From positions 1 to 52,173 of the forward strand of contig CAYQLH010000002.1 of assembly GCA_964418385.1 (NCBI GenBank): a DNA stretch of 52,173 bases. Reading direction: 5' to 3'. Below the pieces are notes generated by a model. It ran no database searches. It had not been told where the DNA came from and saw only the letters and a list, made by a program, of their open reading frames with translations. The first letter of the stretch is position 1. Each line of letters starts with the position of its first letter. Source of the stretch: an uncultured Pseudomonadales bacterium (lineage in GTDB: Bacteria; Patescibacteriota; Microgenomatia; UBA1400; PJMF01). This document shows positions 2,768 to 45,274 of this stretch, piece by piece. The translations under genes and the position numbers were made by a program.

Positions 2768-3883
2768 ATGAAGTTCACAGTCAAACAAGCCGAGCTGGCA
2801 AAAGCAGTAAAAGCGATCAATCGTTGTCTTTCAAGACGGCCGCATTTGCCGGTTTTGGGTGGGATCAATCTTGTTGCTAAAGAAGGAAAAGTTAGCTTGA
2901 CAACCACAGATACGAGTGTAGGTTTGCGAGTGAGTGTGGCGGCAGAAATTGAGCAAGAAGGTCAAACGGTAATCGTAGGTAAAAATTTTGTGGAAACAGT
3001 GGGATTTTTGGAAGGTGCAAAGACAGAGGTCACAACCGGAGAAAAAGAGGCAATAGTGTGCAGCGGGCGTGATAAAGTGAAGTTACCAATTTTAACGGAT
3101 GAATTTCCAGGTTTTGACGATAGTTTTGACGCTGATGGCTTGGTGAAAAAGAATCTTGATTTTTGGGCGAAGATTGTGAGCGACGTTGCTTTTGTGGCAA
3201 GTACAGACCAGAGTCGACCAGCTTTAACAGGAATTCTTTTAAAAACGACAGGCGAAAAAACACAAATTGTGTGCACTGATGGCTTTCGCTTGGCAATTTG
3301 GGAAACTGAGGAGAAAATCAATGATGACGATAACCTTGAAGTAATTGCGAGTGCCAAGGCGCTGGCAGATTTGGTGGCGGTGGCGGGCGTACTTGGTGAA
3401 ACCAAGGTAGGAATTTATCACAATGTGGCGGCAGAGCAACTGGTTTTTGTGGGCGAGCAGTTTGTCTTTTTTAGCAAACTGATAAATGCGAGTTATCCGC
3501 CGTTTGAGAAAATTGTGCCCCTTGATTTTGCAGTCCAGGCGCAGTTGGAACGGAGTGAAATGTTGAAAAACCTGGCTAAAGCAAGTGTTTTTACCAAAGT
3601 GGATAGTAATACTGTGAAATTACACTTGAGTGCGGAACAGCTGGAATACAACGCGGTGAGCCTGGGTGATGGGAGTTTTCAAAGTAGCCAGGAATTGGTA
3701 AAAAAAGACGGTGATGAGATAGAAATTGCATTTAATATTAAGTATTTGCAAGATTTTTTGAATACCTGTGAAGGAGCGACGGTATGGCTGGGTTGTAATA
3801 CGCCCACGACGCCGGCGATGTTGCGTGATCCGGGGGTGGCGGAGCGAAAATACGTAGTGATGCCGTTTAAGCCGAAAAATTAG
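2768..3883 (+). CDS. dnaN: DNA polymerase III beta sliding clamp
   Basis: 371-aa ORF reading MKFTVKQAELAKAVKAINRCLSRRPHLPVLGGINLVAKEGKVSLTTTDTSVGL...ALTGILLK...DGFRLA...MPFKP, the typical DnaN architecture and length. Confidence 0.95.
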   Translation: MKFTVKQAELAKAVKAINRCLSRRPHLPVLGGINLVAKEGKVSLTTTDTSVGLRVSVAAEIEQEGQTVIVGKNFVETVGFLEGAKTEVTTGEKEAIVCSGRDKVKLPILTDEFPGFDDSFDADGLVKKNLDFWAKIVSDVAFVASTDQSRPALTGILLKTTGEKTQIVCTDGFRLAIWETEEKINDDDNLEVIASAKALADLVAVAGVLGETKVGIYHNVAAEQLVFVGEQFVFFSKLINASYPPFEKIVPLDFAVQAQLERSEMLKNLAKASVFTKVDSNTVKLHLSAEQLEYNAVSLGDGSFQSSQELVKKDGDEIEIAFNIKYLQDFLNTCEGATVWLGCNTPTTPAMLRDPGVAERKYVVMPFKPKN

Positions 3884-3926
3884 CAAAAGTGTGGTATAAT
3901 ATCTCATCTGGATAAGAAAGGATGCG

Positions 3927-4076
3927 ATGAAAAGAACGTGGCAACCAAAAAAGAAAAAACGAATGCGCAAACATGGGTTTTTGAAACGGATGATGACGGC
4001 CAAAGGACGCCAGGTCTTGAAACGTCGCCGAGCAAAAGGTCGAGCGCGGTTGACAGTGGTACGCAAAGGTGTTTGA
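3927..4076 (+). CDS. rpmH: 50S ribosomal protein L34
   Basis: Not in the ORF track because it is under 60 aa. ATG 3927 to TGA 4074-4076 gives [51 protein letters not shown]-like GAAAGGA lies 6 nt upstream and TGgTATAAT is at 3886-3894. Confidence 0.9.
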
Positions 4077-4370
4077 TTGGTGAAACAAGAAAAGACGGAA
4101 AATAGCGGGTCTGGTGTGAAATCAGGCTCGCTTTTGGCGATAAATGATTGTAAGCTGCTAAATAAAGCAGCGATTGCGCTGGCACGGAGTGTAGTCAAGG
4201 TGCATAAACGCTTGGCACCCTGGCGGCGAGCAATTTTGGTGAGTGTGTTTGGATTTTGTAGCGAGTGTAAACAGCGACCAACTTGTAGCGAATACTTATT
4301 GGAGCAAACGGAGAAAAGTGGCTGGCGAGGTCTAGCGCGAGGAATAAAGCGAATGCTTGCTTGTCATTAG
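4077..4370 (+). CDS. yidD: Membrane protein insertion efficiency factor YidD-like
   Basis: The C-terminal half, CKQRPTCSEYLLEQTEKSGWRGLARGIKRMLACH, matches the YidD motif C-R-x-x-P-[ST]-C-S-x-Y...R-x-x-R-C-H. Start is TTG immediately after the rpmH stop, so the exact start is uncertain. The N-terminal ~55 aa are unrelated to RnpA. Confidence 0.7.
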   Translation: MVKQEKTENSGSGVKSGSLLAINDCKLLNKAAIALARSVVKVHKRLAPWRRAILVSVFGFCSECKQRPTCSEYLLEQTEKSGWRGLARGIKRMLACH

Positions 4371-4482: not shown

Positions 4483-5979
4483 TTAATAAATGTTGCCAAA
4501 AATGGTGGCTTTGATAGCATTGATGTCCTCTTGGAGAGCGTTGTCGGTTTTGAGGTGATCGTTAATTTTGGCGACAGCATGCATGACGCTGGTATGATCC
4601 CGATTGGAAAAAAGCTGACCGATTTCAGCATAGCTGAGAGAAAGGAGTGACTTGAGTAAAAACATGGCAACATGGCGAGCGAGGGCGATTTCTTTTTGGC
4701 GGCGAGTGCCGATAAGGACGGCTTGCTTGAGGGAATAATGATTGGCAACAGCTTGAATGATTTCTTTGGGATGAAGTTGGCGATGAGAGTATTCTTGTTG
4801 TTGCGTCTCGGCGAGGATACTGGTGACAAGTGTTTGGTCAATGAGTTTGCCGGAAAGCTCGTGTTCGCTTTTGAGGCGCATGACGATGCCTTCGAGTTTG
4901 CGGGCAGAATCAATGCGGGCGGCGATCATTTGAGCAAGTTCGATGGGAAGCTCAAGACCAGAACTTTTAGCCTTGGCGAGAAGAATGGCAGAGCGGAGCT
5001 CGAAAGACGGTTGCTGAATGTCGATTTTGAGGCCGGCTTCAAAGCGAGAGCGAAGACGATCTTCGAGGAGAGCGATTTCGTGCGGAGGACGATCTGAGGT
5101 CATGACAATTTGGTGATTTTGCTTGACAAGCGCGTTGAAAGTGTGGAAAAACTCTTCCTGAACAGCGTTTTTACCAGCGATAAACTGGATATCGTCGATC
5201 AAAAGGACGTCGCAAGTACGATATTTGTCTTTAAAATTGAGCGCTTGCTTGTTTTGGATGGCGCGGATGATAGAATTGGTAAATTCTTCGCCGGTGCAGT
5301 AAATAATTGTGGTTTCTGGGCGGGAGCGAAGAATATAGTTGCCGATGGATTGCATGAGGTGGGTTTTACCGACGCCTACAGAGCCGTAAAGGAAAAGTGG
5401 ATTGTAGCTCACGCCTGGGTTTTTGGCGACGGATAAAGCGGCAACGTGCGCCATTTCGTTGGAGCTAGAGATAGCAAAAGTATCAAAAGTGAAATCTGGG
5501 CGTAAACCGATGTTTTTGGCAATGGTGGCGGCGCGAGAAACGAGAGTGTCGCGGACGGTGTGAGAAGAAAAAAGACCGTCGGCATACTCGACAGTGGGGG
5601 GTGGGGTGGTGGGGAGATTGGCAACGGTTTGAGTGGTGTCTGGAGTAGGCGTTGTTTTGGTAGTAACTACAGTGGGAGCAGGGGTGGGAAGATTAAAAAT
5701 AAATTTGAGCTCTACAGGGCGGCCGAGTTTAGCGGCAAGTGCATTTTTGGTGTGTGATCCAAGGTTTTTTTCAAATTGAAGAGCGTTAAAGGAAGACGGA
5801 CACAAAAAAACACAAAGCCATTGAGTACCGTTGGCGTAATCGTCTATTTGATGAAGACTGCAAGTTTTCCCCCATGCATCAACTAAAAGTGGCGAAACAG
5901 TGGTGGCAAGTTCGGTGCATGTTTCTTGCCAGAGGGTTTGAAGTGAACCAGCATCGAGTGCGAGCGATTGTGATGACAT
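4483..5979 (-). CDS. dnaA: Chromosomal replication initiator protein DnaA
   Basis: Walker A is LYGSVGVGKTHLMQSIGN, Walker B is LLIDDIQF, sensor region is MTSDRPP, and the C-terminal DNA-binding helix is RDHTSVMHA. Start set to ATG 5979 (MSSQSLALD...) on promoter geometry. A T/P-rich linker separates domains I and III. Confidence 0.95.
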   Translation of the reverse strand: MSSQSLALDAGSLQTLWQETCTELATTVSPLLVDAWGKTCSLHQIDDYANGTQWLCVFLCPSSFNALQFEKNLGSHTKNALAAKLGRPVELKFIFNLPTPAPTVVTTKTTPTPDTTQTVANLPTTPPPTVEYADGLFSSHTVRDTLVSRAATIAKNIGLRPDFTFDTFAISSSNEMAHVAALSVAKNPGVSYNPLFLYGSVGVGKTHLMQSIGNYILRSRPETTIIYCTGEEFTNSIIRAIQNKQALNFKDKYRTCDVLLIDDIQFIAGKNAVQEEFFHTFNALVKQNHQIVMTSDRPPHEIALLEDRLRSRFEAGLKIDIQQPSFELRSAILLAKAKSSGLELPIELAQMIAARIDSARKLEGIVMRLKSEHELSGKLIDQTLVTSILAETQQQEYSHRQLHPKEIIQAVANHYSLKQAVLIGTRRQKEIALARHVAMFLLKSLLSLSYAEIGQLFSNRDHTSVMHAVAKINDHLKTDNALQEDINAIKATIFGNIY

Positions 5980-5986: not shown

Positions 5987-6015
5987 GTTTTACACTGAGT
6001 TTTCCACAATGTCAA
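5987..6015 (-). promoter_or_regulatory. dnaA promoter with a DnaA box inside the spacer
   Basis: Minus strand reads TTGACA (6015-6010), a 17-nt spacer, TAAAAC (5992-5987), 7 nt, then ATG 5979. The spacer contains TGTGGAAAACT, seen as AGTTTTCCACA at 5998-6008 on the plus strand. This layout is classic for autoregulation. Confidence 0.55.
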
Positions 6016-6139: not shown

Positions 6140-8311
6140 TTAGGTGTTGCTTGGCGGGCGGTAAGCATCGATAGAATACTCGTCGTGGCCAGCGAAACTC
6201 GGGGGATTGTTGCCATCTGGACGGACGGTGGGTTGATCGGGAATTTTATCGGCGCTGACGTGCGAGCCAGTAGTGCCGGTAGTTGCTACCTGTTTGGCGG
6301 TATTAATACTATTTTTTGCCTGGAAATTGGTTTCAGGAGCGGCTTGATCGGTAGTTGTTACCTGTTGAGTGTCGGTGGTGAGGTTGTTGATCATCGAGTA
6401 AATATTTTGGAGTTCGGCGGCGTTTTGCGTGGCTTGCGGGGAGGGGGTGGGTTGGGGATTGGCGGCGGCGAGGAGTTGCTCTTGTTCGAGAGCAGCTTGC
6501 TGCTGGCGGCGCATGATTTCTTCTGGGTTGGTAGTGATCACGCGGTGTTCTTCTGGAGAAGCGACAACGCGCAGGGCGACGTGATTTTGACCAGCGAAAA
6601 AGATACCTTCGCCGACGTCGACAGCGAGTAGTAGCTGACGTTCACCTTGGGAGAGGTGGAAAGTTTCTACCAAAGGGGGAATAGAGACGCTGGATTGTTT
6701 CATTAAAAACTGGATGGAGGAGTTGGAGACGATAGCTTTGCCGTAGTCATTGTGCAAAAAGTCTTCTACGTCCTGAGAAATGGTGGTGACGCCGAGATAG
6801 TATTTGCGAGCGCGTTTGGCCATAGAATAAAGGAAACTGGCGGAGTCGGCGTTTTTCATAAAATACCAGGCTTCATCAACGATCAGAATTCGTTTGCGGA
6901 AATTGCGCTTGACGCGTGTCCAGACAAAATCGAGAATGACGTACATAGCGATAGGGCGAAGTTCTTCTTCGACTTCTTTGACGGAAAAGACAATGAGTGG
7001 GTTGGAGAGATCGATATTGGATTTTTGATCGAAAAGACCGCGGAAAGAACCAGTAATGAATTTTTCCAGACGGGCGGCAATGTCGAGGGCGGGGGGAATT
7101 TCCATGCCGATAAGCGCTTTGTAAAGATCTTCCATAAGCGGCGGTTCATTGGTTTGAGTACCGGGATCGGGGGTAATGCCTTTAGCTCTGTAGGCAGCAA
7201 CGATCGCTTTGTCGAGAAGTGATTCCTGTTCGGCAGAAAGTTCGCCAAGCATGAGCCGCAGAAGTCCTTGGAGCGAGAGGATTTTTTGACCAAGCTCGTT
7301 TTCACCTTCTTCATAAAGATTGGAAAGATCGAATGGATTTATCTTGGTGGGCGAGTTAAATGAAAAGTCAATGTAAGTACCATCCATTTTGATACTCAGA
7401 TCCTCATACTCATGCTCAGGGTCGAGAATGATGACGTCGACGCCGAACATGAGTTGGCGAATAACTTCCAACTTGGTGGTGTAAGATTTACCAGCACCAG
7501 ATTTGGCGAAAATCACCATGTTGGCGTTTTCCATTTTAAAGCGGTCAAAAATGACGAGCGAATCGTTGTGTTCGTTGATGCCGTACATAATACCGGTTTC
7601 CATGGAAAGTTCCGAAGAGGTGAAGGGGAAAGTGGTAGCGAGTGAAGTGGTATCCATATTGCGGTTAATTTTGAAACGATCAATGCCCATAGGAAGGGTG
7701 TTTTTGAAGCCGTCATTCATCTGCATGGTGGCTTGCTTGGCGATGATAAGCTGTGAGCCGAGAGAAGATTTTAAAGCAGCGCTGATGCGATCAAGATCTT
7801 CCATAGAAGGCGCATAAACAGTGAAATAAAGGCCAAATTGGAAAAACTTGTAAGTACCTTTGGCGAGTTCTTCACGTAAAGAGACGGCATCTTCAAGTTT
7901 GACTTCGGTATCGATATTGGTGATTTTGCCGGCGCGCAAATCTGATTGAAGTTCTGCTTCCATTTCGGTGATTTTGCGTTTGAGTTTTTCAAGAATGTCG
8001 GCAGAGTCGACGGGGTAAACAAACATAGAAATGTCGATAGTGGCGGGAAAATTGATGAGTGGTGAAAGCCAATTGGCGAGAACAGAGCGAGGATAGCCAG
8101 CGACGAAAAAACTGCGAGTGAAGTGAGAATTGATTTTTTGTTCGGAAAAATCAACTTCGATCGCTTCTGGTGAAATGACATCTTGAATAGTAACTAGACC
8201 TTGAGAAAACTGGTGAATTTTTTCAAAAACTTGTTTTTCTTTTTGGGCGTTGGTATCAAACAGATCGCTGTCTGATTTCTTGCCGAAAAGGTTGAACAAA
8301 CTAAATGACAT
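6140..8311 (-). CDS. virB4: VirB4/TrbE/CagE-family type IV secretion ATPase, with Q/T/P-rich C-terminal tail
   Basis: The N-domain pattern is ...FTRSFFVAGYPRSVLANWLSPLINFPATIDISMFVYP.... Walker A is IFAKSGAGKSYTTK, followed by IILDPEHEY, Walker B ILIVDEAWYF, and GVTTISQDVEDF. The last ~130 aa are low complexity. SD AAAAGGAAC precedes the ATG. Confidence 0.85.
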   Translation of the reverse strand: MSFSLFNLFGKKSDSDLFDTNAQKEKQVFEKIHQFSQGLVTIQDVISPEAIEVDFSEQKINSHFTRSFFVAGYPRSVLANWLSPLINFPATIDISMFVYPVDSADILEKLKRKITEMEAELQSDLRAGKITNIDTEVKLEDAVSLREELAKGTYKFFQFGLYFTVYAPSMEDLDRISAALKSSLGSQLIIAKQATMQMNDGFKNTLPMGIDRFKINRNMDTTSLATTFPFTSSELSMETGIMYGINEHNDSLVIFDRFKMENANMVIFAKSGAGKSYTTKLEVIRQLMFGVDVIILDPEHEYEDLSIKMDGTYIDFSFNSPTKINPFDLSNLYEEGENELGQKILSLQGLLRLMLGELSAEQESLLDKAIVAAYRAKGITPDPGTQTNEPPLMEDLYKALIGMEIPPALDIAARLEKFITGSFRGLFDQKSNIDLSNPLIVFSVKEVEEELRPIAMYVILDFVWTRVKRNFRKRILIVDEAWYFMKNADSASFLYSMAKRARKYYLGVTTISQDVEDFLHNDYGKAIVSNSSIQFLMKQSSVSIPPLVETFHLSQGERQLLLAVDVGEGIFFAGQNHVALRVVASPEEHRVITTNPEEIMRRQQQAALEQEQLLAAANPQPTPSPQATQNAAELQNIYSMINNLTTDTQQVTTTDQAAPETNFQAKNSINTAKQVATTGTTGSHVSADKIPDQPTVRPDGNNPPSFAGHDEYSIDAYRPPSNT

Positions 8312-8320
8312 ATGTTCCTT

Positions 8321-9013
8321 TTACTCCAGTTTGCTTTCGACAACATTGGCAGAGATGATAGGCGCGGCGAAATCTTGGCTTTCCATAATGCCGATACCTT
8401 CTGAGTCGCCAGGATTGTAGCTTTGATAGAAGAGTTTGATGATTTCTTGGGTGGTGATTTGATTGGCAAAAAGACCGATGCGACCAAATTGAGAAATAAG
8501 GTGGTCGCGCATAGGGTTGAGAATGCCAGCAGCGCGTTCGATAATAGGAGCAAGCTCATAACGGTCGAGGTTAACGCTAGCAGTAGTATTGAAAACGTTT
8601 TTGGCAGTACCAATGCCGAGATCAAGTGCGGAAGCAGTAATGACGACGTAAAAACTCTTATCTAAGATATTGCTTGTTTTAACCCAAGTGCGGACAAATT
8701 CACGATAACGCGCAATTTGAGCCTTATGATTGGGATTGGTGGTGTTATTCTCCGCTTCGACAAGACTATTGAGATAGTTGCTAATATCTTTAGCTTGAGA
8801 TTTAATGATAATCTGAATGGGAAAATTGAGAGAGTTGAGAATGCCGGCATAAGCGTAAATGGCAGCATCTTGTTCTTCTTCTGACAGAAGGCCAAAATTG
8901 ATAGTACCAACCTCAATAATTTGGGAAATAGAGCCGTCATTAAGAATCACCATGTTATTGGTAATATCAAAAATATCGGTGAATTTCTGTGTCGATGATG
9001 AGATTTCTGACAT
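8321..9013 (-). CDS. Hypothetical T4SS-associated protein resembling only the N-terminal (non-ATPase) domain of VirB4
   Basis: 230 aa with no P-loop. The segment ...ILNDGSISQIIEVGTINFGLLSEEEQDAAIYAYAGILNSLNFPIQIIIKSQAKDISNYL... follows the layout I associate with VirB4/TraC N-domains. It ends 9 nt before virB4, so translational coupling is likely. Confidence 0.45.
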   Translation of the reverse strand: MSEISSSTQKFTDIFDITNNMVILNDGSISQIIEVGTINFGLLSEEEQDAAIYAYAGILNSLNFPIQIIIKSQAKDISNYLNSLVEAENNTTNPNHKAQIARYREFVRTWVKTSNILDKSFYVVITASALDLGIGTAKNVFNTTASVNLDRYELAPIIERAAGILNPMRDHLISQFGRIGLFANQITTQEIIKLFYQSYNPGDSEGIGIMESQDFAAPIISANVVESKLE

Positions 9014-9035
9014 ATAATATTTCTAGTATAACAAA

Positions 9036-10313
9036 TTATTGGGATGTTATCAAGGGTGGAGTAGGAGCGGTGGCAACGGATGGGGTAGGGCTGAGAATGG
9101 GAGTACCAGGGAGTTCGAGATTGGGTAAAATGATGTCGTTAGCGTTTGCTGTAGTGGCAGCATTGGGCGTATCGGTTGGCGGAATAATTGTCGGTACGGT
9201 TGTAGGTGTAGTTTGATTAGCAAGTGGTACAGCAGCGACGTTATCAGCGCTGGCAGAATTAATAACTGAAGTAACGGGAGCGACAGCAGTAATACTGTCG
9301 GTGGCAGCGATGGGAGCGCCGGGAGTGAGGGGAGAAACCACAGTAGTAGACTCGTTGATAATTGGTTTTTCGGTGGGAACAGCTTCAGTAAAAGCTGACG
9401 CAACACTCGTGCTATTTGTATCTAAACTTGGCAAAACTACATCGGAGTTGAGAATGGGAGTCGATGTGGCGGTTTCTGGAGAGATAAGTGGTGGCTGAGG
9501 AAGATTGGTGGGAGTGGGAGCGGTAGAATAAACTGATGAATCAACGTTGGTTGTTTGCGTTTCCAAAGAAGCGACAGGATTATCGTTGGTGAGAGCTGCG
9601 AGGTTGGAATCGGCGGCGGCCAAGCGAGCGTCAACAGCGGTAATTTGCTCGGTGACTTGGATGGGCTGGAAAATACTGTTGGTTTCCAGGAAAGAATTAA
9701 GTGAAGCTTGAGTAGGAGTGATGATTTGGCGTTGGCGTGTGGAATGATCAGCAGTGACGTCACGCTTGATGGTGACTTTTTGCGGTGCAACAACAGCTTG
9801 TGGCTCTGGTGTGGGAGCAGTTTGAAAATCAGCGGTCGCTTGAGCAATTTTTTGGTCGTTAAAAATTTCTAAAGGATCGTCGCCAGTGTCAACGTTGACG
9901 CCGAGAGTGGAAAAGTAAGCGATCGCTTTGTGCTTTTTGGCTGGAGAATCGTTAAAAGTGGAGTTGGCATCGAGAAACTCACGATTGGTGGCTGGCAGCT
10001 CGTAGGTAAAATATGAAGGAATAACCGTTTGTTTGTGCCAGTAGAATTTTGTGGGAGCAAAAAGCGCTTTGAAAAAAACGGTAATCCATTTGCTAAGAGG
10101 ACGACCGCCCAAGGGCACGAAAGCGGCGAAGATGCCGATGCCAACGCTGATAAGCATCAGTGGCCATTTAATTAATTCTGGCCAATTCATACGATAAATA
10201 ATGACTGCGATAATAACACCGGCCATAATCTCACCGAATTGCTTAAGATCAAGCTCGCCGATAAGGTGAAATTTGTAGTTGCTGATATCCTGTGGGATTA
10301 AATGCTCTTGCAT
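9036..10313 (-). CDS. PrgI/TcpE-family (VirB3-like) two-TM T4SS membrane protein with ~300-aa T/P/S/A-rich extension
   Basis: Start set to ATG 10313 (MQEHLIPQDISNYKFHLIGELDLKQFGEIMAGVIIAVIIY...LMLISVGIGIFAAFVPLGGRPLSKWI), which matches the PrgI-family N-terminal pattern (vP.di..Y..k..g.lt.rQ plus 2 TM). The rest is low complexity. TGcTATAAT lies at 10338-10330 on the minus strand. Confidence 0.55.
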   Translation of the reverse strand: MQEHLIPQDISNYKFHLIGELDLKQFGEIMAGVIIAVIIYRMNWPELIKWPLMLISVGIGIFAAFVPLGGRPLSKWITVFFKALFAPTKFYWHKQTVIPSYFTYELPATNREFLDANSTFNDSPAKKHKAIAYFSTLGVNVDTGDDPLEIFNDQKIAQATADFQTAPTPEPQAVVAPQKVTIKRDVTADHSTRQRQIITPTQASLNSFLETNSIFQPIQVTEQITAVDARLAAADSNLAALTNDNPVASLETQTTNVDSSVYSTAPTPTNLPQPPLISPETATSTPILNSDVVLPSLDTNSTSVASAFTEAVPTEKPIINESTTVVSPLTPGAPIAATDSITAVAPVTSVINSASADNVAAVPLANQTTPTTVPTIIPPTDTPNAATTANANDIILPNLELPGTPILSPTPSVATAPTPPLITSQ

Positions 10314-10392
10314 AGTAATTCGCAGGTTCATTATAGCATAGAAAGCGTGGAGGAGCAAATTTGCTATCAACCGAATAACTGAAATCTAAATG

Positions 10393-12168
10393 CTAATTGG
10401 ATGGACCAACTAGGTATTTGGCAGACCAAGCTTGATATTTGGAAGGATAATCTTTTTGTGAGCGAATGCTGCCATCGGCGTTGTAAATTGTATGGGTAAA
10501 GTTAGTTTCAAGACCACCAACAGCCCAATCAATTTGTTTAACCTGTCCTGGTGCGAGAGAGGGATCCTCGATGTATTGTGCCGGTGGAGCACCGCTGGCA
10601 TTAAACTTTTGATAGTTAGTAATAGTAGTATAGCGGCCATCAGAAGTTCCCCAGATTTGGGCATACATATAAAGAGCATTGGAGTCTGTGCTGGTGGTAA
10701 TTAACACATAGTGATCAGTATCATTGATAAAACGAAGATCGACATTGCCGCTAAAAACAGTCGCATCAAAACCGGGGTCATTGGAGAGTTCATAATAAGA
10801 AACACGATAACTATGGGGACGACGGAGAGTAATTTTTAAGCCAGCGTCTAGGAGAGCACGAAAAACAGTAGTAGAAACTTGACAAACGCCGCCACCAGCG
10901 GAAAGAACAGAACGTCCAGATTGAATAATATAACCCTCTTGGTAACCGCCGGCGGCGGAAACATCGCCGACACTGCGGTTAAAAGAAAACTCTTCTCCGG
11001 GAGCGACGAGGGTGCCGTTAATTTGCGAAGCGGCAACAGCGACATTGTGGGCGCGACCAGCACTAGAGTGAGCATAGTAACTTTCGCCAAAACCAATAAC
11101 TTCGGAAATGCCGAGATCGTTGATTTCGGCGAGGGTGTGGGTGGGTGGGGCGGTGATCAGAGGTAATTCTATAGTAAGAGAACTTTCCGAAGAAGTAATA
11201 AGCGTGTCGATATTGGACAAAAGAAGAGTTATAAATTGAGCTTCATCAAGCGTTAAACCGTCAAGTGGCGGAGAAAACTGGGTAACTTTAGTGCGATCTT
11301 CATTAATGACAATTTCTGGTTCTTGTGGCGGTCTGGCAACTTGTTCGTTGACACCGGTGAAGAGCTCGTGAAGATAAGCAGTGTGTGTAGGACTTTTGGG
11401 TAAAAGAATAGGAATAAGGTCAACATCAGTGAAGGTGTGAGTGTAGTTGTTGATTTTGTCAGTATGCCAGATTAAAGATTTGCCGATGAGAGCGCGAGCG
11501 CGTTCTTCTAGAAGCGAGGTTTCTTCTGTGCTGAGCGGAACAAACTCTGGAGAAACAATCAAAGTGGCAGCAATTGTGGCTTGCTTGGGAAATTGATTTT
11601 GAATACTTGTGAATGTTTGCGACCAATCGAGGGCGATTTGCTGACTGCCTGGATCAACACTGGTGTTTTCTCCATTGATGGTAATACTGGGGTGGTGACC
11701 GACCTTTTCGGTTTGTTTGGCGAAAGTGGCGAGAAAGTCACTGAGGCGATTATAATCTGAGCTGAGAGTGACAGAGTCTAGATGAGTGCTTTGATTGGAA
11801 AGTAAATATTGCCAAAACTGGAATCTGGAAAGTTGCTTTTGGGCGTCGAAAAGACGCTGAAGTGTATCTGCAATTTCAAATTTAAAACCCAAAGCGGCGC
11901 TGGAGCTGGCAAGTTGATAATCTGGAGCGATGAGAGTGAGCGTGGATTCTGGTGGGAAGCACCAGATCAAGCTGGCGGCTGCGCTAGCTTCGTTAAAAGT
12001 AGTGTTGGATATGTCAAGAGTGCCAATACTGGTGCGTGGCAGAAAATGCGATTGATAAAAATGCTCGATACACCAAGAAACACCCCAAAGAGAGAGAATG
12101 GCAAAAAAAAGAGCAACAAAAAAATGCATCTGTGAGGAAAGTGGTGAAGGGCATGCTTTTTTTGCCAT
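10393..12168 (-). CDS. VanW-family protein (N-terminal TM, VanW domain, G5-like C-terminus)
   Basis: ...GTLVAPGEEFSFNRSVGDVSAAGGYQEGYIIQSGRSVLSAGGGVCQVSTTVFRALLDAGLKITLRRPHSYRVSYYE...GFDATVF...DLRFINDT is the conserved VanW core. Start ATG 12168 (MAKKACPSPL...) has TATAAT 6 nt upstream. Confidence 0.85.
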   Translation of the reverse strand: MAKKACPSPLSSQMHFFVALFFAILSLWGVSWCIEHFYQSHFLPRTSIGTLDISNTTFNEASAAASLIWCFPPESTLTLIAPDYQLASSSAALGFKFEIADTLQRLFDAQKQLSRFQFWQYLLSNQSTHLDSVTLSSDYNRLSDFLATFAKQTEKVGHHPSITINGENTSVDPGSQQIALDWSQTFTSIQNQFPKQATIAATLIVSPEFVPLSTEETSLLEERARALIGKSLIWHTDKINNYTHTFTDVDLIPILLPKSPTHTAYLHELFTGVNEQVARPPQEPEIVINEDRTKVTQFSPPLDGLTLDEAQFITLLLSNIDTLITSSESSLTIELPLITAPPTHTLAEINDLGISEVIGFGESYYAHSSAGRAHNVAVAASQINGTLVAPGEEFSFNRSVGDVSAAGGYQEGYIIQSGRSVLSAGGGVCQVSTTVFRALLDAGLKITLRRPHSYRVSYYELSNDPGFDATVFSGNVDLRFINDTDHYVLITTSTDSNALYMYAQIWGTSDGRYTTITNYQKFNASGAPPAQYIEDPSLAPGQVKQIDWAVGGLETNFTHTIYNADGSIRSQKDYPSKYQAWSAKYLVGPSN

Positions 12169-12174
12169 ATGTGT

Positions 12175-12245
12175 ATTATATATGATAAGCAGGAGAAAAT
12201 AAAGGTATAAGTGGTAGGCGAAAACACGATAAGGTGTGTTACAAT
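12175..12245. promoter_or_regulatory. Divergent leaderless-type promoters of the VanW/T4SS operon (-) and the GT39-like gene (+)
   Basis: The minus-strand TATAAT is ATTATA at 12175-12180, 6 nt from ATG 12168. The plus-strand TGtTACAAT is at 12237-12245, 7 nt from ATG 12253. Confidence 0.55.
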
Positions 12246-20891: not shown

Positions 20892-20918
20892 GCCCCGGGC
20901 GGAAGTCTGGGGCTTTTT
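20892..20918 (+). terminator. Intrinsic terminator after the 124-aa gene; its U-tract overlaps the stop codon of the convergent VirD4-like gene
   Basis: GCCCC (20892-20896), a 12-nt loop, GGGGC (20909-20913), then TTTTT (20914-20918). Confidence 0.5.
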
Positions 20919-23124
20919 ATCCGACTTTTTTGGTGGCGTAGCGCTCGCGGGAAACGCGGATGACTTTTTCGCGGTTGTGATTGCTGCTGGCAGCTGGCGG
21001 CAAGGTGTAGGCAGGGAAGGGGTAGGAAATGATGTTGTCGATAGTGATGCGATTGATAATCTGGTGCTTGTTGAGACCCACAAGATCCTCGGCGGTGTAT
21101 TTGCCGCCATATTCCTTGGAGAAAACCTCGGCGTCTTCAGAGCCCATGACGAAGGAGACGACGGAGCCGCAGTTGCCAAAAATCGCTTTTTGTACTTCTT
21201 CGGGAATCTGGGCGACGTATTGATTGGCGAGGATAAGATTGAGGCGGTATTTACGGGCTTCTGATAGTATTTTATTGAAAGAGGTAGTGGCAAAATTTTG
21301 GAATTCGTCGACGTAGAGGTAAAAATCGCGACGTTCTTCCTCAGGCATGTTGACGCGCCCCATGGCAGCAAGTTGAATTTTGGTGATTAGCATAGCGCCC
21401 AAAAGGGTGGCGTTGTCTTCGCCGAGTTGGCCTTGAGAGAGATTGACAAGGAGGATTTTGCCTTCATCCATGATTTGCTCGATACTAAAACTGCTCCAGT
21501 CTGAGTTGACAACGTTGCGAACGAGCGGGCTCGAGACAAATTGACCGATTTTGTTTAAAATTGGCGCGACGGCCTCATTTTTCATCCGGTCTTGAAGAGG
21601 CTCGAATTCACCAAGCCAAAAATTGCGCAAGACCGGATCGTCGACTTGTTCGAGGACGCGTTTGCGGAATTCTTTATCGGTAAAAAGAGTGATAATATCG
21701 CCCAATTTGGCGTTTTCCATTTGCAGGAGAGTGAGGAGGGCGTTGCGCAAGAAATGCTCGAGTCTGGGGCCCCAGGAGTATTCGTAGAGCTTGTGGAAAA
21801 TGGAAATAATGCCAGAAGCAATGAGCTCGCGGTGCTCGACGTTGCGACCTTCAAAAAGGTTAATTTTGACGGTGCGGTCACCGTCGGCAGGGTTGAAAAA
21901 GACAACGTCGTTGATGCGGCTGGCGGGAATGTAGTCAAGGAGAGTATCGATGGCATCGCCGTGAGGATCAATGAAACAGAGGCCTTCATTGTTGCGCAGA
22001 TCATTGATGGCCATGTTACACAGCATCGTGGATTTACCGGTGCCGGTTTTTCCGATGACATACATATGACGGCGGCGATCGGCGCGGTGAATGCCGTATT
22101 TGCGGGTTTCGTTTTTAAAGACGGTTTCGGCAAAAACGTTGATTTCTTTTTTGATTTCTGGTGGATCTTGTTTGGAGACAGTGGGTAGATTGTCTGGCGG
22201 CTCGCCGAGGAGATTTTTACCCCAGGTGAGGTTGGGAATGGTGGAAAGGGTTTTATTGGGGAAATGATAAAGGCTGGCGAGCTCAAAAATGGAGAGGTGG
22301 AAACTGGAGTGAGCGACGAGGCGACGCTCGAGCATGGCATCGAGGCGGTGGGTGGGTGGGAGAAGCGAGGTGACGCGGCGGAGAGAATTGGAATCTTCTT
22401 TGCGGAAAGCATCGAAAGCGTCTACAATGCCGTCGAGGAAAAGTTTGGCGTTATCGCGGGAGTCAGAAATAACGGCGAGGTTGAGATTGACGCTGAGCGT
22501 TTTGGCGTGAATTTTGGACTCGATGAAAGATTTGGCACCTGGAGCGAGGCTGAGAGTGGAAACTTGACCATCACCGGAGATTTGAGGGGTGGGGCTGAGC
22601 AGGCGTTCACAACTGGATTTCCAGGCGTCGCTAGAGTGACCGATGATAAGCTGGATGACGGCGCGGTCTTGAGGACCGCCTTTGGAAAGGTGAGAAAGTA
22701 AGGGTGAGAGCGAGTCGGCATCACCAAATTCACGATAATCTTTAAGCGGGTAGCAATCGCCGTTTTGCAGGGTGAGGGCGGCACTATCGAGGACAAGCTG
22801 GTCTGATTTATAATTTGGTTGCGCCTGAGGGTGGAAGTAAAGTAGATAATCAGCAGTACGGACAGGTTTGATGACCGCTTCAGGAAATTGAGCACCGATA
22901 GCACTTTTGAGGTATTCGATCAAACGATCTGGTACGTAAAGATAAAAGCTGATGTTTTGGTGTTCAAGTGCGATTTCACAAGAGAGGGTTTCGTTTTTGT
23001 GGATCAGCTTGTTCCAGAAATCATCGTGAAAAGAGGGGATGGTGGAAAAGAATTCCATCATGGCATCGGCGTTTTTGAGACTGTCACGGCCAGTATTGAT
23101 CTCAAGCAAGGAATGGTTTTGCAT
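20917..23124 (-). CDS. virD4: VirD4/TraG/TraD-type type IV coupling-protein-like P-loop ATPase (FtsK/HerA superfamily) lacking N-terminal TM segments
   Basis: Walker A is MYVIGKTGTGKSTML, followed by CFIDPHGDAID, Walker B FYLYVDEFQNF, and ARKYRLNLILANQYVAQI. The N-terminal ~330 aa are soluble. ATG 23124 lies 10 nt after TATAAT (plus-strand ATTATA, 23135-23140); the alternative start is GTG 23130. Confidence 0.8.
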   Translation of the reverse strand: MQNHSLLEINTGRDSLKNADAMMEFFSTIPSFHDDFWNKLIHKNETLSCEIALEHQNISFYLYVPDRLIEYLKSAIGAQFPEAVIKPVRTADYLLYFHPQAQPNYKSDQLVLDSAALTLQNGDCYPLKDYREFGDADSLSPLLSHLSKGGPQDRAVIQLIIGHSSDAWKSSCERLLSPTPQISGDGQVSTLSLAPGAKSFIESKIHAKTLSVNLNLAVISDSRDNAKLFLDGIVDAFDAFRKEDSNSLRRVTSLLPPTHRLDAMLERRLVAHSSFHLSIFELASLYHFPNKTLSTIPNLTWGKNLLGEPPDNLPTVSKQDPPEIKKEINVFAETVFKNETRKYGIHRADRRRHMYVIGKTGTGKSTMLCNMAINDLRNNEGLCFIDPHGDAIDTLLDYIPASRINDVVFFNPADGDRTVKINLFEGRNVEHRELIASGIISIFHKLYEYSWGPRLEHFLRNALLTLLQMENAKLGDIITLFTDKEFRKRVLEQVDDPVLRNFWLGEFEPLQDRMKNEAVAPILNKIGQFVSSPLVRNVVNSDWSSFSIEQIMDEGKILLVNLSQGQLGEDNATLLGAMLITKIQLAAMGRVNMPEEERRDFYLYVDEFQNFATTSFNKILSEARKYRLNLILANQYVAQIPEEVQKAIFGNCGSVVSFVMGSEDAEVFSKEYGGKYTAEDLVGLNKHQIINRITIDNIISYPFPAYTLPPAASSNHNREKVIRVSRERYATKKVG

Positions 23125-23169
23125 AAACACTGGTATTATAACATAGTTTCAGGCAGAAACCGGTCGACA

Positions 23170-26100
23170 TTAGTTGAGCGGTTGCCAGGAGTATAAACCG
23201 GTGTTGAGGTCAGCTTGACAAGCGTAGAAGGCTTTGTCGTTGGAATCGTAGTAAATCTTGCCTTCTGTATCGACAGCACAAACGCCCGCTGTCGTTTCGT
23301 CGATGGGTGAAAGCTGGAGGGCACCATCCACCTTGACATTGCCAGCGACTTCCAAAGCTTCCGTCGGGTTGGCAGTGCCGATACCGATGTTGCCGTTGGG
23401 GAGAATCGTGAAGCGAGTGGTGGCGGTGTTGTCGGCGTTGAGAGTGCGGATGTTGAAGCTGGTCTGGCTAGCGAGATCAAGATTGTTCTTCTTGGTGAGG
23501 CTATCCATAAAGATGTTGCCACGAACCATAAGGGTGGGCGTACCGTTACCGGCGAGATTGAGGAAACCAATGCTGGCACTGGAAGTAGCTTCGCCGCCCA
23601 AGAGGATGTCGCTGTTGGTGGTGGGGAAGATGACACCGGCGACTTGTTTCCAGAGCGATTGGGTGCCGTTGCTAGTGACGCCAGAATCGGTGACATAATT
23701 GATGTTGATCTGACCAATCTTAACTTCTTGGCTTTGTTTGCTGGCAGTCTTGATACGAATGGTGAGTCGATCACCAGCTTTGAAACCGAGATTGGAGAGT
23801 TGCTCGCCAGTGATGGTGGCAGGAGTGGTACCGAGGGCAGCGCTCATCCAAGAAGCAGCGGTTTCGCTGACAAGATTGCTGGCGACAGCGCCAATTTCAG
23901 TGCCGCCGCGATAGACTTCAAGCTGGACGTTGTTGAGGCTGGGATCGGTGCTGGTGGTAGCGTAATCGAGAGTGATCCCATTGGAACTCCACGAGGTGAA
24001 ATTTGAAGGTAGAGTGAGATTGATGGTGGCGTCGAAATCATTGAGGACAGCTAGATCTGCTGAAGACCAGGAATAGTAGTTGAAGCGGTAATTTTCACCG
24101 ACGGTTTGTGTGCCAGCAGTGAAAGTGCCGTTGTTGTGCGAGCCGTCGCCGCTGATAACGGCACCAGCGTACTCGGCGTCGAGAACAAGGCGACAAACGT
24201 TACCAGTGCAGTTGCTGGAGTTGGCGAGGGAGACAGCGTTTTCACCAGTGATACCGGTGGGTACAAAATCCGTGCCGTTGTAAATATAGAGCACTTGACC
24301 GACAGAATCGTAAACAATATCGCCCATTTGCTGACCCGCTTTGGCGTAGGGTTTGCCCACGGAAGTAGGCACCTGCAAACCTTGATTGTCGCCATAAGAG
24401 GTGTTGATACGGCCTTGAGCGGTAATGTTGTCGCTGGCGACAATCGTACCGTTGTCGGCAAATTGTAGTGAGAGACGACCATTGGTGTAGATGCTACCAG
24501 CAGAAGGCATGCGGGTGTGCGTGACGAGATCGAAGTCGTTGTAAGTATCGTAGACGGTGGTGGTATTGTCCGTGAGTTCGCTTACCAGGTAGTAATCATC
24601 AGAGTTGGAGAGGGAGCGGTAGAGACGGCGGGCGGTAACGTCCGGAGAAGAGGCGAGAGGAATATTGGTGATCTTGATGACGCGACCATCACCGGTGACG
24701 GAGATAGAATCGCTGGCGCTGGAGGGCGCGGACTCGCCTTTGGAAGTGACGTAAGTAACACGGTAGCGATATTTGCCGGTGCTGGAAAGATTGGAAGGCG
24801 TAGTGGACAAGTCTTCATCTGGAGTGATGTCGTAAGTGGAGGTAGAGGTGTTGTCACGAATGGTTTTGACGAAATAATAGGTATCGCCACCATCGCGTGT
24901 GCGGTAGAGATTGCGAGCAGTGACAGCGGGGTGAGAAGAGGTAGCGAGATCGTTGATGACAACAACTTTACCGGAGGTGCTCAATTTCAGCTCAGTCGCG
25001 GGACTAAGTGACGTTTGGGAACCATCAGAGGTGACGAAAGTGTAGGCGTATTTGTAAGTGCCGGGTTGAATTTTGGCATCAGGTTGGTCTTGAGTGGAGA
25101 CCTTGAGAGTGGATTCCGGAGAATCGATGCGGCGAAGGGCGTTTTGATTGACGATGTCTTCGCTGAGTGTCATTTTGCTGATATCTGGACCAGAGGCGTA
25201 TTCAAAAGCAATACTACCGTTGTTGATAGTTAGTTTTTGCTTGGTTTTGTTGGTGCCAAGACCGAGATTGCCATTTTTGTCGACTACAAGCGAGTTCCAA
25301 ATGGTTTGCGCGGCGGAGGAGCGGAAAGTAAGGCCGTCGTCACTATAAGTAATAGTGGAGTTTTTGCCGTTGAGACGGAGGTTGCCGTTGAGATTGAGGT
25401 TGGCAGATTGGGTGGCGGAACCGACATAAAGTTCGCCGTTGCCTGGAAGGAGATAGATATCGCCATTTTGTGAGACAAGATTGAGACCACCAACGTTAAT
25501 AATAGAAGTGTTGTTGGTGCCAAATTTGAGATTACCGTTGCTGTCGACGACAGGAATAGTATTGGCCGTGGCCGAAGCGCTGGCAGAGTAACCTTGCAGA
25601 GTTTCGCTATTAAGAGCAAAAGGAACAGATTTGATCAACTGGCGAGGGAAGAGCACTTCGTCATCGACAGTAATTTGTAGCCAGATATTGGAGTTTTCGG
25701 CAAAAATAGTGCCCAAAGTCTGACCACAATTGTAATCATCGTGACCATCGCCTTTGCCAGCACCGAGGTTAACAGTGAAAATACCAGAGCTACTGGGTTT
25801 GACGGTACAAAAACCACTATCCCAGAGAACCTCGCCACCAATGGGAGGAGGCGTGGTACCACCGCTAGTATTGTAAAGAGTGAAACGCATTTGTTTGGGA
25901 GCGGTGATGGATTTTTGGTCATAGTCGCTCAAGCGACCCTGGAAAGTCAGAATACGTGGCGGGGCGACAGCGGCTTGAGGGTCAGGGTTCTCAGCTGCAA
26001 AGTCGAGATTGGCGTTTTTGATAAGTTGGTTAATGCCAAAAATACAAGCGCCAACGCTAAAAACGCTAACAGCAAAAACTGGTAAATTGCGGGTAAGATT

Positions 26101-26652
26101 GAAGGTTTTGTCTGCATCGGCTGAAGATTGGAAGGCGCTGGTGTCGATTTTTTCGCCGGTAGTGTTGGTCATGCGTTTGGCAAAAAGTCGTTCATGATCC
26201 AGATAGTCGCTGGTGTCGCGAATTACTTGGGCTTCCTGGGCATGGACGCTGCCTTGTAAAATGGCCTCAATGCTACCCAATTGTTTGACGCGGGCGGCGA
26301 GCTGACTGCTTGTGGGACGGTCACCGAGGATATTTTGGATGTCACCCAATTGTTTAACGCGTGGACGTTTGATGTGGCGTACGCCTGACGCGTCAACTTT
26401 GCTACTGTTTGTTGTTGCCAATTTATTTGTTGTGTTCATAACTTTTTTTTTAGATTTTGTTTTCTTGGCAGAAGGTTTGGCACTTGCTTTACCACTCGCA
26501 GCTTTAACTTTGCTTTTGCTCGTTTTACTCGCTGGTTTTGATTTGAGGTAGGAGTTGAGCAATTGTCTGCGTTTGGTCGACGACGACTTGGTCGTGGCTC
26601 GCACAACTCGTCTGCCTTTTGCCGGTGTTTTACATTTCTTTTTGTCAGCCAT
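23170..26652 (-). CDS. Giant (1160-aa) type-II membrane surface protein: Lys-rich cytoplasmic tail, one TM, ~950-aa beta-rich tail-fibre/adhesin-like ectodomain
   Basis: aa 1-100 are K/S/A/T-rich (KKKCKTPAKGRR...KTSKSKVKAASGKASAKPSAKKTKSKKK). The TM is ~aa 190-210 (LPVFAVSVFSVGACIFGINQLI). The ectodomain is T/S/N/G-rich with two ~85-aa repeats and ends ...IGIGTANPTEALEVAGNVKVDGALQL...YYDSNDKAFYACQ, a motif style I associate with tail-fibre-like proteins. Confidence 0.75.
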   Translation of the reverse strand: MADKKKCKTPAKGRRVVRATTKSSSTKRRQLLNSYLKSKPASKTSKSKVKAASGKASAKPSAKKTKSKKKVMNTTNKLATTNSSKVDASGVRHIKRPRVKQLGDIQNILGDRPTSSQLAARVKQLGSIEAILQGSVHAQEAQVIRDTSDYLDHERLFAKRMTNTTGEKIDTSAFQSSADADKTFNLTRNLPVFAVSVFSVGACIFGINQLIKNANLDFAAENPDPQAAVAPPRILTFQGRLSDYDQKSITAPKQMRFTLYNTSGGTTPPPIGGEVLWDSGFCTVKPSSSGIFTVNLGAGKGDGHDDYNCGQTLGTIFAENSNIWLQITVDDEVLFPRQLIKSVPFALNSETLQGYSASASATANTIPVVDSNGNLKFGTNNTSIINVGGLNLVSQNGDIYLLPGNGELYVGSATQSANLNLNGNLRLNGKNSTITYSDDGLTFRSSAAQTIWNSLVVDKNGNLGLGTNKTKQKLTINNGSIAFEYASGPDISKMTLSEDIVNQNALRRIDSPESTLKVSTQDQPDAKIQPGTYKYAYTFVTSDGSQTSLSPATELKLSTSGKVVVINDLATSSHPAVTARNLYRTRDGGDTYYFVKTIRDNTSTSTYDITPDEDLSTTPSNLSSTGKYRYRVTYVTSKGESAPSSASDSISVTGDGRVIKITNIPLASSPDVTARRLYRSLSNSDDYYLVSELTDNTTTVYDTYNDFDLVTHTRMPSAGSIYTNGRLSLQFADNGTIVASDNITAQGRINTSYGDNQGLQVPTSVGKPYAKAGQQMGDIVYDSVGQVLYIYNGTDFVPTGITGENAVSLANSSNCTGNVCRLVLDAEYAGAVISGDGSHNNGTFTAGTQTVGENYRFNYYSWSSADLAVLNDFDATINLTLPSNFTSWSSNGITLDYATTSTDPSLNNVQLEVYRGGTEIGAVASNLVSETAASWMSAALGTTPATITGEQLSNLGFKAGDRLTIRIKTASKQSQEVKIGQININYVTDSGVTSNGTQSLWKQVAGVIFPTTNSDILLGGEATSSASIGFLNLAGNGTPTLMVRGNIFMDSLTKKNNLDLASQTSFNIRTLNADNTATTRFTILPNGNIGIGTANPTEALEVAGNVKVDGALQLSPIDETTAGVCAVDTEGKIYYDSNDKAFYACQADLNTGLYSWQPLN
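24526..25062 (-). repeat. Two tandem ~85-aa protein repeats inside the giant protein
   Basis: aa 531-615 read GTYKYAYTFVTSDGSQTSLSP...VVVINDLATSSHPAVTARNLYRTRDGGDTYYFVKTIRDNTST..YDITPDEDL. aa 626-709 read GKYRYRVTYVTSKGESAPSSA...VIKITNIPLASSPDVTARRLYRSLSNSDDYYLVSELTDNTTTVYDTYNDFDL. Confidence 0.8.
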
Positions 26653-28277: not shown

Positions 28278-28604
28278 ATGCAACAATACGATACACGGAT
28301 CCAAGTGCGACTGGAAGAGAATTTAAAAAGGCAAGCGGAAAAAGTTTTTGACGGTTTGGGTGTGGATTTGCCGACGGCAATCCGTGTGTTTTTGCGCCAA
28401 AGTGTGATTCAAAACGGTTGGCCGTTTGGGATGATGGGTTTGGACGCGTTGCAAGATACGTGCACCAATACGGTGACACGTGAGCTTTTGGTGAGTGACG
28501 GGAGAGCTTACGAAGTGATGCGGACGCAGAAAACCTGTCAGTTGGCATCGGCGCGAACACGGGCCTTTTTGACGAGCGAGCAAGCAGAAAAACAGCAAAA
28601 GTGA
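28278..28604 (+). CDS. RelB/DinJ-family antitoxin-like protein (RHH), no adjacent toxin
   Basis: The N-terminus TRIQVRLEENLKRQAEKVFDGLGVDLPTAIRVFLRQSVIQNGWPF matches the DinJ pattern (i.vRld..lK..a..v...lGl..s.ai..fl.q......lPF). The C-terminal 55 aa are unassigned. Confidence 0.65.
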   Translation: MQQYDTRIQVRLEENLKRQAEKVFDGLGVDLPTAIRVFLRQSVIQNGWPFGMMGLDALQDTCTNTVTRELLVSDGRAYEVMRTQKTCQLASARTRAFLTSEQAEKQQK

Positions 28605-31755: not shown

Positions 31756-31799
31756 AGAATTTGCCTTTGGGTTTTGGTCGGTGTGATACAATAACCGGT

Positions 31800-45246: not shown

Positions 45247-45274
45247 TTTTCGGTTAAATGAACACTTAGAATTT

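Follow-up and report, generated by a model that had tools for sequence, protein, structure and literature searches.

Contig CAYQLH010000002.1 (GenBank assembly GCA_964418385.1) was analysed over a stretch of 52,173 nt (the window, to whose positions all coordinates refer), which carries beside dnaA three adjacent genes for a PrgI/VirB3-like protein, a TrsD/TraD-family protein and a VirB4 ATPase, hereafter the triad. We consider it probable that positions 6140-10338 hold the conserved energising core of a Patescibacteria-specific, MPF_FATA-derived type IV secretion system (T4SS), which was reduced in a clade of gut bacteria and received its VanW neighbour via a deletion. What the genes encode, how VirB4 is split, the gene order across genomes, the strong purifying selection and the conservation of a promoter-like motif are direct observations; they are set out below, starting with the two VirB4-related proteins. 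The features concerned are listed here.

9036-10313, minus strand: PrgI/VirB3-like gene, 425 aa from the ATG at 10313 or 444 aa from an upstream TTG
8321-9013, minus strand: TrsD/TraD-family gene, 230 aa, no P-loop
6140-8311, minus strand: VirB4 ATPase gene, 723 aa, MPF_FATA/CD1110 type
10338-10330, minus strand: extended -10 promoter-like element TGCTATAAT, 16 nt upstream of the PrgI ATG
4483-5979, minus strand: dnaA, ATG at 5979; Pfam Bac_DnaA (227 bits) and Bac_DnaA_C
10393-12168, minus strand: gene for a VanW-type protein, 591 aa, with an N-terminal transmembrane (TM) helix, PG_binding_4 and a VanW domain
12180-12175, minus strand: TATAAT hexamer, 6 nt before the VanW ATG at 12168, with leaderless-type spacing; a pattern only
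20917-23130, minus strand: gene for a VirD4-like ATPase of the type IV coupling protein (T4CP) type, 8.7 kb from the triad; Pfam TrwB_AAD_bind and TraG-D_C

A VirB4 ATPase divided between two proteins

Domain scans were carried out with Pfam and NCBIfam profiles at gathering or curated cut-offs, namely 27 for PrgI, 27 for VanW, 325 for CD1110 (NF045971) and 200 for TrsD (NF041427). The 723-aa protein reached 372.6 bits against conju_CD1110, with residues 31-579 aligned, and its Pfam matches comprised P-loop_TraG (91 bits), AAA_10 and DUF87 besides weak ones to CagE_TrbE_VirB and TraC_F_IV. It also aligned with PDB 4AG5, the VirB4 C-terminal domain, at E 1.9e-43, and carries a Walker A motif (AKSGAGKS) at residue 269, a Walker B motif (ILIVDE) at residue 475 and a C-terminal tail of 133 aa rich in T, A, Q and P. 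An earlier first-pass annotation, made from the sequence alone, had described this protein as a full VirB4 ATPase with a tail of about 130 aa; the ATPase and the tail were both recovered, but the N-terminal part is absent. Since the ATPase domain starts at residue 263, which is aligned with residue 445 of TrwK, some 180 N-terminal residues are missing from this VirB4, roughly the size of the TrsD core.

The missing portion corresponds to what the 230-aa protein matches. Its best NCBIfam match is to the VirB4_plasma profile, where it occupies positions 103-239 of 894 (E 1.4e-9) and the 723-aa protein positions 288-885. On the CD1110 profile (752 positions) the two proteins cover 17-135 and 176-733, and on TIGR00929 (792 positions) 19-132 and 236-731, respectively. 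Because the two proteins cover complementary parts of these profiles, VirB4 is effectively split into TrsD and the 723-aa ATPase, as in plasmids of the pGO1/pIP501 type. The TrsD profile itself was matched over positions 21-144 of 201 with 27.3 bits (E 2.8e-6; cut-off 200), and no Walker A motif was detected in the 230-aa protein. A Foldseek search of the PDB with an AlphaFold2 model (pLDDT 70) returned TrwK/VirB4 structures for all of the top eight matches, with marginal scores (E about 1e-2, probability 0.75-0.98, TM-score 0.31-0.39). Judged by its size, its place between the VirB3-like gene and a short VirB4 and its similarity to annotated TrsD proteins (below), the 230-aa protein is a member of the TrsD/TraD family, and by the profile and structure matches a predicted stand-alone N-terminal subdomain of VirB4 devoid of a P-loop. 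This agrees with the first-pass annotation, which had likewise proposed a stand-alone VirB4 N-domain without a P-loop, and disagrees with its further claim of a duplicated N-module outside described T4SS architectures: the family is known, and it complements an N-terminally short VirB4.

At first sight the 230-aa protein appears to belong to no family, as a Pfam scan gave no matches even at E 1, and PDB sequence searches, run with both the profile and the single sequence, returned nothing meaningful. The former result is explained by the absence of PF26593 from the Pfam-A set that was scanned, and the TrsD-like homologs P0001-P0120 are all labelled with this precomputed Pfam family. Besides, a hidden Markov model (HMM) built from the TrsD proteins of the clade matched TrsD of an L. 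plantarum plasmid (25 bits), TrsD of pSX01 (21 bits), hyp227 of Bt407 (48 bits) and hyp274 of Pontibacillus (113 bits), all of which are encoded between a VirB3-like gene and a short VirB4. The corresponding VirB4 HMM aligned from residues 17-50 of these short VirB4s and from residue 286 of the unsplit 854-aa VirB4 of Spiroplasma.

Two other origins of the pair were considered and rejected. A duplicated N-terminal module finds no support in hhalign comparisons, and the profile coverage is complementary. A recent nonsense split, for which the common reading frame of TrsD and VirB4 might speak, can be dismissed as well, as the genes are separate in all 80 loci of the comparison set and the frame relation is not kept in the close relative L002. 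We found no paper that explicitly names TrsD plus a short VirB4 a split VirB4; treated as one split protein, the pair offers a concrete target for structure prediction and biochemistry.

Conservation, transcription and the VanW neighbour

The comparison set consists of 80 species-level genomes (L001-L080) collected with the TrsD profile. The 230-aa protein has 309 homologs, the closest of which stem from animal-gut metagenome-assembled genomes (MAGs) of Patescibacteria of the Microgenomates group; those of about 50% identity derive from Microgenomates-group MAGs such as Woesebacteria and Pacebacteria. Patescibacterial in gene content, many of the MAG records bearing these loci nevertheless carry the title "uncultured Pseudomonadales bacterium". 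The order PrgI, TrsD, VirB4 is colinear in 72 of the 80 loci, which answers the call of the first-pass annotation for a synteny check across Patescibacteria. A co-directional dnaA follows VirB4 in 72 of 73 informative loci, at a median gap of 120 nt, and dnaN follows dnaA co-directionally in 63 of 66. In the window, 160 nt separate the VirB4 stop from the dnaA ATG (the first-pass annotation had given 160 bp to the dnaA promoter), and the genes are likewise co-directional.

Nonsynonymous divergence (dN) was calculated against L002, a goat-jejunum MAG that is the closest relative with full context; synonymous divergence (dS) between it and the window is saturated (>1.4). The dN values were 0.038 for the VirB4 core, 0.067 for TrsD, and 0.135 each for the PrgI N-domain and DnaA, compared with 0.358 for DnaN, 0.369 for the solute-binding protein (SBP) encoded next to VanW, 0.393 for VanW and 0.40-0.47 for the low-complexity tails. 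Taking both closest relatives (L001 and L002), TrsD shows 91-92% amino acid identity, DnaA 83% and DnaN 54-57%, and the dN of the VirB4 core is 0.038-0.041. TrsD and the VirB4 core therefore evolve more slowly than DnaA and are under very strong purifying selection, which argues against decay or a mobile-element remnant and places the triad proteins among the slowest-evolving of the region. None of the four genes in the open reading frame (ORF) listing contains a frameshift or internal stop. Together with the synteny, these values bear out the earlier suggestion of a domesticated, relaxase-less T4SS-derived machine beside dnaA in place of a mobile element, a conclusion that is already published for Patescibacteria.

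The surroundings of dnaA are unusual in other respects. The dnaN region (2768-4370, plus strand), with a yidD-like ORF at 4077-4370, is inverted relative to dnaA on the minus strand, unlike in 63 of 66 other species, a rearrangement of the origin region in this clade. GC skew on the plus strand is unusually strong (+0.2 to +0.38) everywhere beyond 2.2 kb, irrespective of the coding strand, and about 0 or -0.1 in the first kilobase; it switches near 800-2400, and an AT-rich spacer (2351-2767, GC 0.37) lies upstream of dnaN. As the skew falls in the first kilobase, the replication origin is probably located at the left end of the window, with the spacer upstream of dnaN as a candidate, in which case the triad and dnaA would be transcribed toward the origin and head-on to replication. 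Typical relatives have the minimum of their cumulative skew near dnaA/dnaN. The spacer between VirB4 and dnaA contains no cluster of canonical DnaA boxes and a single box with one mismatch, at 6000-6008.

The PrgI-like protein has two predicted TM helices and a tail of 305 aa (T 15%, A 13%, P 12%, S 9%), as the earlier description of a two-TM PrgI-family protein with a T/P/S/A-rich tail of about 300 aa had it. It scores 25.4 bits against Pfam PrgI (PF12666), just under the cut-off of 27, which its ortholog in L024 passes with 28.3 bits; a PrgI HMM of the clade matches PrgI of Bt407 weakly (8.6 bits). A CarboxypepD_reg-like C-terminal beta-sandwich domain is found in 71 of 74 PrgI orthologs and is missing from the window (compared over 9036-9400), L002 and L004.

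The gaps along the four-gene string, confirmed from the ORF coordinates, are 79, 22 and 9 nt, and the first-pass annotation had read the string as one operon led by VanW behind the TATAAT hexamer. This hexamer was verified 6 nt before the VanW ATG; it is not listed by a consensus promoter scan, because no matching -35 element is present. That scan, run for promoters and terminators, gave counts not above shuffled expectation (14 vs 11.6 and 10 vs 7.2). A second promoter-like element was found between VanW and PrgI: TGCTATAAT, a perfect extended -10 in the 79-nt gap, recurs in the clade relatives L002, L003 and L008, and the variant TGTTATACT occurs in L006 and L007. The element is kept within the clade in spite of saturated synonymous divergence. 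Within 45 nt upstream of PrgI, 41 of 72 loci contain the motif TGnTAnnnT, which occurs in 2.9% of random background windows. Given this enrichment and the conserved extended -10 in the VanW-PrgI gap, the triad is most likely transcribed from its own promoter just upstream of PrgI, and the single promoter proposed for all four genes is not upheld. The motif would thereby define a likely transcription unit. A weak hairpin is located at the VanW stop codon.

The identification of the first gene as encoding a VanW-domain protein was substantiated by 147.2 bits against Pfam VanW (PF04294; cut-off 27) and 33 bits against PG_binding_4. With a predicted TM helix and an intact conserved Cys motif (GGGVCQVST at residue 425), the protein is predicted to be a VanW-type L,D-transpeptidase-like protein; VanW domains are L,D-transpeptidases (Bollinger et al. 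2024, PMC11348318). Its position as first gene of a T4SS operon is a different matter. For this count, loci with at least 5 kb of sequence upstream of PrgI were taken as informative (57 loci) and VanW was sought within 10 kb. VanW was upstream of PrgI in three of them, all from the clade of the window, at distances of 143 nt (L002), 5.6 kb (L006) and 7.8 kb (L007). In distant Patescibacteria, VanW orthologs of 37-42% identity occur on contigs that also bear T4SS genes, within a conserved block Sortase-VirD4-like-RadA-CTP_transf-...-SBP(-)|VanW(+), which is also present in the window; there the block is roughly 10-20 kb from the T4SS genes, with LeuRS, L25, yidC and rnpA in between. VanW is therefore most likely a neighbour of the triad rather than a conserved component of the T4SS. 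In the simplest history, the backbone SBP|VanW pair was brought beside the T4SS cluster in this clade, and a later deletion of an accessory cassette in the window/L002 lineage made VanW abut PrgI.

Reduction of the locus and competing explanations

Traces of such a cassette are preserved in clade relatives. Three genes in L006 and six in L007 lie between VanW and PrgI, including those for a giant TM protein, a TM protein of about 320 aa, and hydrolases of the M23 and M23+NlpC/P60 types; a comparable accessory pair is located upstream of PrgI in L004, whose contig ends before any VanW. No homolog of the accessory genes of L006, L007 and L004 was found anywhere in the window. The lineage of the window and its closest relative thus lost the accessory genes at the T4SS locus along with the PrgI C-terminal domain, which is a modestly new observation; the TrsD of the window has no tail. 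As a side observation, a TM protein family of about 320-350 aa without Pfam match is encoded directly upstream of PrgI in 34-37 loci (e.g., L004 2238-3242, L007 3369-4337 and L008 1251-2222) and is absent from the window. This family represents a conserved T4SS accessory, perhaps analogous to VirB8.

For assembly, function and transcription units, we reason by analogy from R388 structures and Southlakia genetics. The triad genes would be read toward dnaA, beside the replication origin, from the promoter upstream of PrgI. PrgI is assigned as a VirB3-like two-TM anchor, TrsD as the detached N-terminal subdomain of VirB4, and VirB4 as the motor ATPase devoid of that subdomain; following solved T4SS inner-membrane complexes, the VirB4 hexamer would be recruited to the membrane and completed there by PrgI and TrsD. 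The hexamer may then power the assembly of, and transport through, a monoderm T4SS that serves an epibiotic lifestyle and not conjugation. In the gut clade, the cassette of the giant TM protein, the ~330-aa TM protein and the M23/NlpC-P60 hydrolases was deleted between VanW and PrgI, PrgI lost its beta-sandwich domain, and the deletion most likely put the backbone VanW gene, normally paired with SBP, directly upstream of PrgI. The locus is a naturally minimised example, in which the VirB3-like anchor, TrsD and VirB4 stay at the origin-proximal position after the other genes of the locus were lost.

Several points weigh against this reading. The homology of TrsD to VirB4 relies on external VirB4 profiles scored under curated cut-offs and on the marginal Foldseek values, and hhalign comparisons between TrsD and the VirB4 N-terminus of the same clade were not significant (E 0.52 and 0.13), although such an outcome is what complementary proteins would be expected to give. 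The PrgI-like protein falls 1.6 bits short of the Pfam cut-off. What is said of promoters and operons comes from sequence patterns only, and VanW is followed by accessory genes after 34 nt in L006 and 21 nt in L007, so that VanW-T4SS co-transcription is possible in the clade. A search for the ~330-aa accessory protein gave five matches, none of them from the closest MAGs, with a word-index method that is insensitive for fast-evolving proteins. Finally, neither a VirB6-like channel protein nor a pilin nor a wall hydrolase was found with the triad in the 52-kb window, so a functional channel requires genes elsewhere in the genome.

Among the rival explanations, a functional role of VanW fares best, even though we regard it as unlikely. 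VanW would here be a clade-specific accessory of the machine, co-transcribed with the triad, that acts on the peptidoglycan around the T4SS by remodelling or re-crosslinking it or by tying a component to it, and it would stand in functionally for the lost M23/NlpC-P60 (VirB1-like) hydrolases. VanW is indeed first in the co-directional string in all four informative clade genomes (the window, L002, L006 and L007), the next gene starts close behind it (after 34 nt in L006, 21 nt in L007 and 79 nt in the window), the protein is TM-anchored and has PG_binding_4 as well as the intact Cys motif, and monoderm T4SSs need wall-remodelling enzymes (PMC12102498). However, no VanW was found within 10 kb upstream of PrgI in 54 of the 57 informative loci, and distant orthologs stay SBP-paired, away from or convergent to the T4SS genes. 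The conserved extended -10 lies between VanW and PrgI, the weak hairpin is located at the VanW stop codon, VanW evolves about ten times faster than the VirB4 core and at the same rate as the neighbouring SBP gene, and VanW domains form cross-links and do not cut (PMC11348318).

A more radical variant, to which we give a very low probability, holds that the gut clade pared its essential T4SS down to PrgI-TrsD-VirB4 alone, with no VirB6, pilins or hydrolases left in the genome, and recruited VanW as the sole wall-active partner. If this were true, the split VirB4 module would have an essential activity independent of a canonical channel and perhaps linked to dnaA and the adjacent origin. Similarly little credit is due to the proposal that the triad, lacking a canonical channel genome-wide (no VirB6, pilins or hydrolases), forms a membrane-anchored ATPase module with an essential non-secretion role, possibly tied to the origin and dnaA. 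In its favour are the absence of the accessory cassette from the locus, with nothing similar elsewhere in the 52-kb window, a triad core more conserved than DnaA and the nearly invariant co-directional linkage with dnaA-dnaN at a median gap of 120 nt. Against this, the view is limited to 52 kb of a genome in which T4SS genes may be scattered, as dispersal is known for them (PMC12102498), Southlakia also depends on its pilins and VirB6-like genes, and the proximity to the origin has a simpler published explanation in gene dosage. An ordinary or decaying integrated conjugative element (ICE), with its other genes lost or outside the window, can largely be regarded as refuted and has next to no chance of being right: the VirB4, TrsD and PrgI families do derive from conjugative MPF_FATA systems and a VirD4-like gene is present in the window, but the same dnaA-adjacent position is occupied in about 70 species, purifying selection is extreme, the genes are free of frameshifts and internal stops, the window scans detected neither a relaxase nor an integrase, and the published VirB4 phylogeny shows inheritance that is vertical and class-specific.

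Further window content and relation to known systems

The remainder of the window is core chromosome (dnaN, the yidD-like ORF, RadA, Rho, Obg, ArgRS, NDK and comEA/comEC), and a sortase gene, an unlinked M23/LysM peptidase gene and the VirD4-like ATPase gene are present as well. Neither Pfam nor NCBIfam scans detected a relaxase, an integrase, VirB6, VirB8-11, a pilin or a CHAP/lytic-transglycosylase domain in the 52 kb, in line with the first-pass statement that no other conjugative T4SS genes are present; the VirD4-like ATPase and the unlinked M23/LysM peptidase are the only genes of related type. The VirD4-like ATPase possesses Walker A and Walker B motifs, lacks a predicted TM helix and scores below the cut-off against NCBIfam CD1115 (44.6 bits). 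Its gene belongs to the conserved backbone block Sortase-VirD4-RadA-...-SBP|VanW, and a functional tie to the triad is uncertain. A gene for a 1160-aa protein (23170-26652, minus strand) ends 39 nt upstream of it; this protein is lysine-rich at its N-terminus and has one TM helix, a long extracellular part resembling a fibre and a weak match to the Bdellovibrio mosaic adhesive trimer domain, and the two genes may encode an adhesin-ATPase pair. As VirB6 candidates, this protein, a 698-aa divergent membrane protein and a 716-aa polytopic protein were rejected, as they gave no T4SS-related matches and none matched ORFs of the 80 loci; the gene of the 698-aa protein is not found between SBP and VanW in L002.

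A low-GC island at about 33100-36500 (GC 0.37-0.40, high AT skew) encodes an LPD3-domain protein and a protein of 397 aa that matches no family, and genes for UmuD-like (28667-29110), UmuC/IMS (31761-33119) and RelB-like (28278-28604) proteins are located nearby; the island may be acquired DNA. In addition, the DNA-uptake machinery (comEA, comEC and a metallo-beta-lactamase-fold gene) is clustered at 44578-47597 on the plus strand, in the same window as the T4SS core.

The closest described counterpart is the T4SS of Southlakia epibionticum (SEML1_0006-0019), which is essential, lies a few genes from dnaA, contains no relaxase (Wang et al. 2023, PMC10633639) and belongs to the first T4SSs, those of Patescibacteria, shown to be essential for their own bearer. 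There, the genes are arranged as PrgI (SEML1_0010), an unnamed 293-aa protein (0009) and VirB4 (0008); the system is required for epibiotic growth, and pilins and VirB6-like genes are essential too, by transposon sequencing (Tn-seq; PMC10633639). A survey of 3,035 genomes described Patescibacteria T4SSs with TrsD, PrgI/VirB3, VirB6 and VirB2 arrays and almost no relaxases (Quinonero-Coronel et al. 2025, PMC12102498). In the same survey, VirB6-like and VirB2-like pilin genes near virB4 were common but not universal, T4SS genes could be dispersed, T4CP genes were mostly far from virB4 and the T4CP was non-essential in Southlakia, virB4 was often near dnaA/dnaN, which was read as a gene-dosage effect, and the VirB4 phylogeny pointed to vertical, class-specific inheritance (PMC12102498). 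The window shares with Southlakia the order PrgI, TrsD-like, VirB4, the chromosomal position near dnaA, the MPF_FATA-type VirB4, the lack of a relaxase (by the window scan) and a T4CP encoded elsewhere. Unlike Southlakia, it has no VirB6-like giants, VirB2-like pilin array or lysozyme/peptidase genes flanking the triad; furthermore, dnaA directly follows VirB4, the PrgI C-terminal domain is lost and the VanW gene abuts PrgI.

The triad order is identical to that of TrsC-TrsD-TrsE in pGO1/pSK41/pIP501-type systems (pSX01, the L. plantarum plasmid, and PrgI-hyp227-DUF87 on Bt407 BTB_78p), which likewise combine a TrsD of about 220-230 aa with a following short VirB4 (630-672 aa) that aligns from near its own N-terminus. 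Sequence similarity to these proteins is low (TrsD 21-48 bits, VirB4 about 24-26% identity), and the systems differ in being plasmid-borne and conjugative, with relaxase, T4CP, CHAP/lysozyme and VirB6-like genes. Unsplit VirB4s, such as R388 TrwK (PDB 7O41/8RTB), F-type TraC and the VirB4 of mycoplasma/spiroplasma ICEs, have the same P-loop motor domain, and TrsD and the 723-aa protein together span their profile length; compared with them, the first 130-240 profile positions form a separate polypeptide in the window.

The VanW protein has its TM anchor, PG_binding_4 domain and VanW Cys motif in common with Ldt4/Ldt5 of Clostridioides difficile (Bollinger et al. 2024, PMC11348318); its enzymatic role is predicted, and its link to the T4SS is purely positional and confined to one clade. 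Outside Patescibacteria, the VirB4 of the plasmid collection that matched best, with 36.8% identity, was from Pontibacillus sp. ALD_SL1 (L081; NZ_CP062975.1, 351-361 kb, on an 898-kb replicon), in a cluster running from a pilin-like gene through hyp116 (VirB3-like), hyp274 (TrsD-like, 113 bits) and VirB4 to an M23 endopeptidase of 1050 aa; within 9 kb, no gene is annotated as a relaxase. This cluster differs in that it belongs to a Firmicute, lies beside chemotaxis/flagellar genes and not beside dnaA, and keeps large membrane proteins as well as pilin-like ones. It may be what corresponds in Firmicutes to the Patescibacteria system. The locus in the window, in turn, is not a new kind of system: it is the already published Patescibacteria T4SS core in an unusually reduced, gut-clade version.

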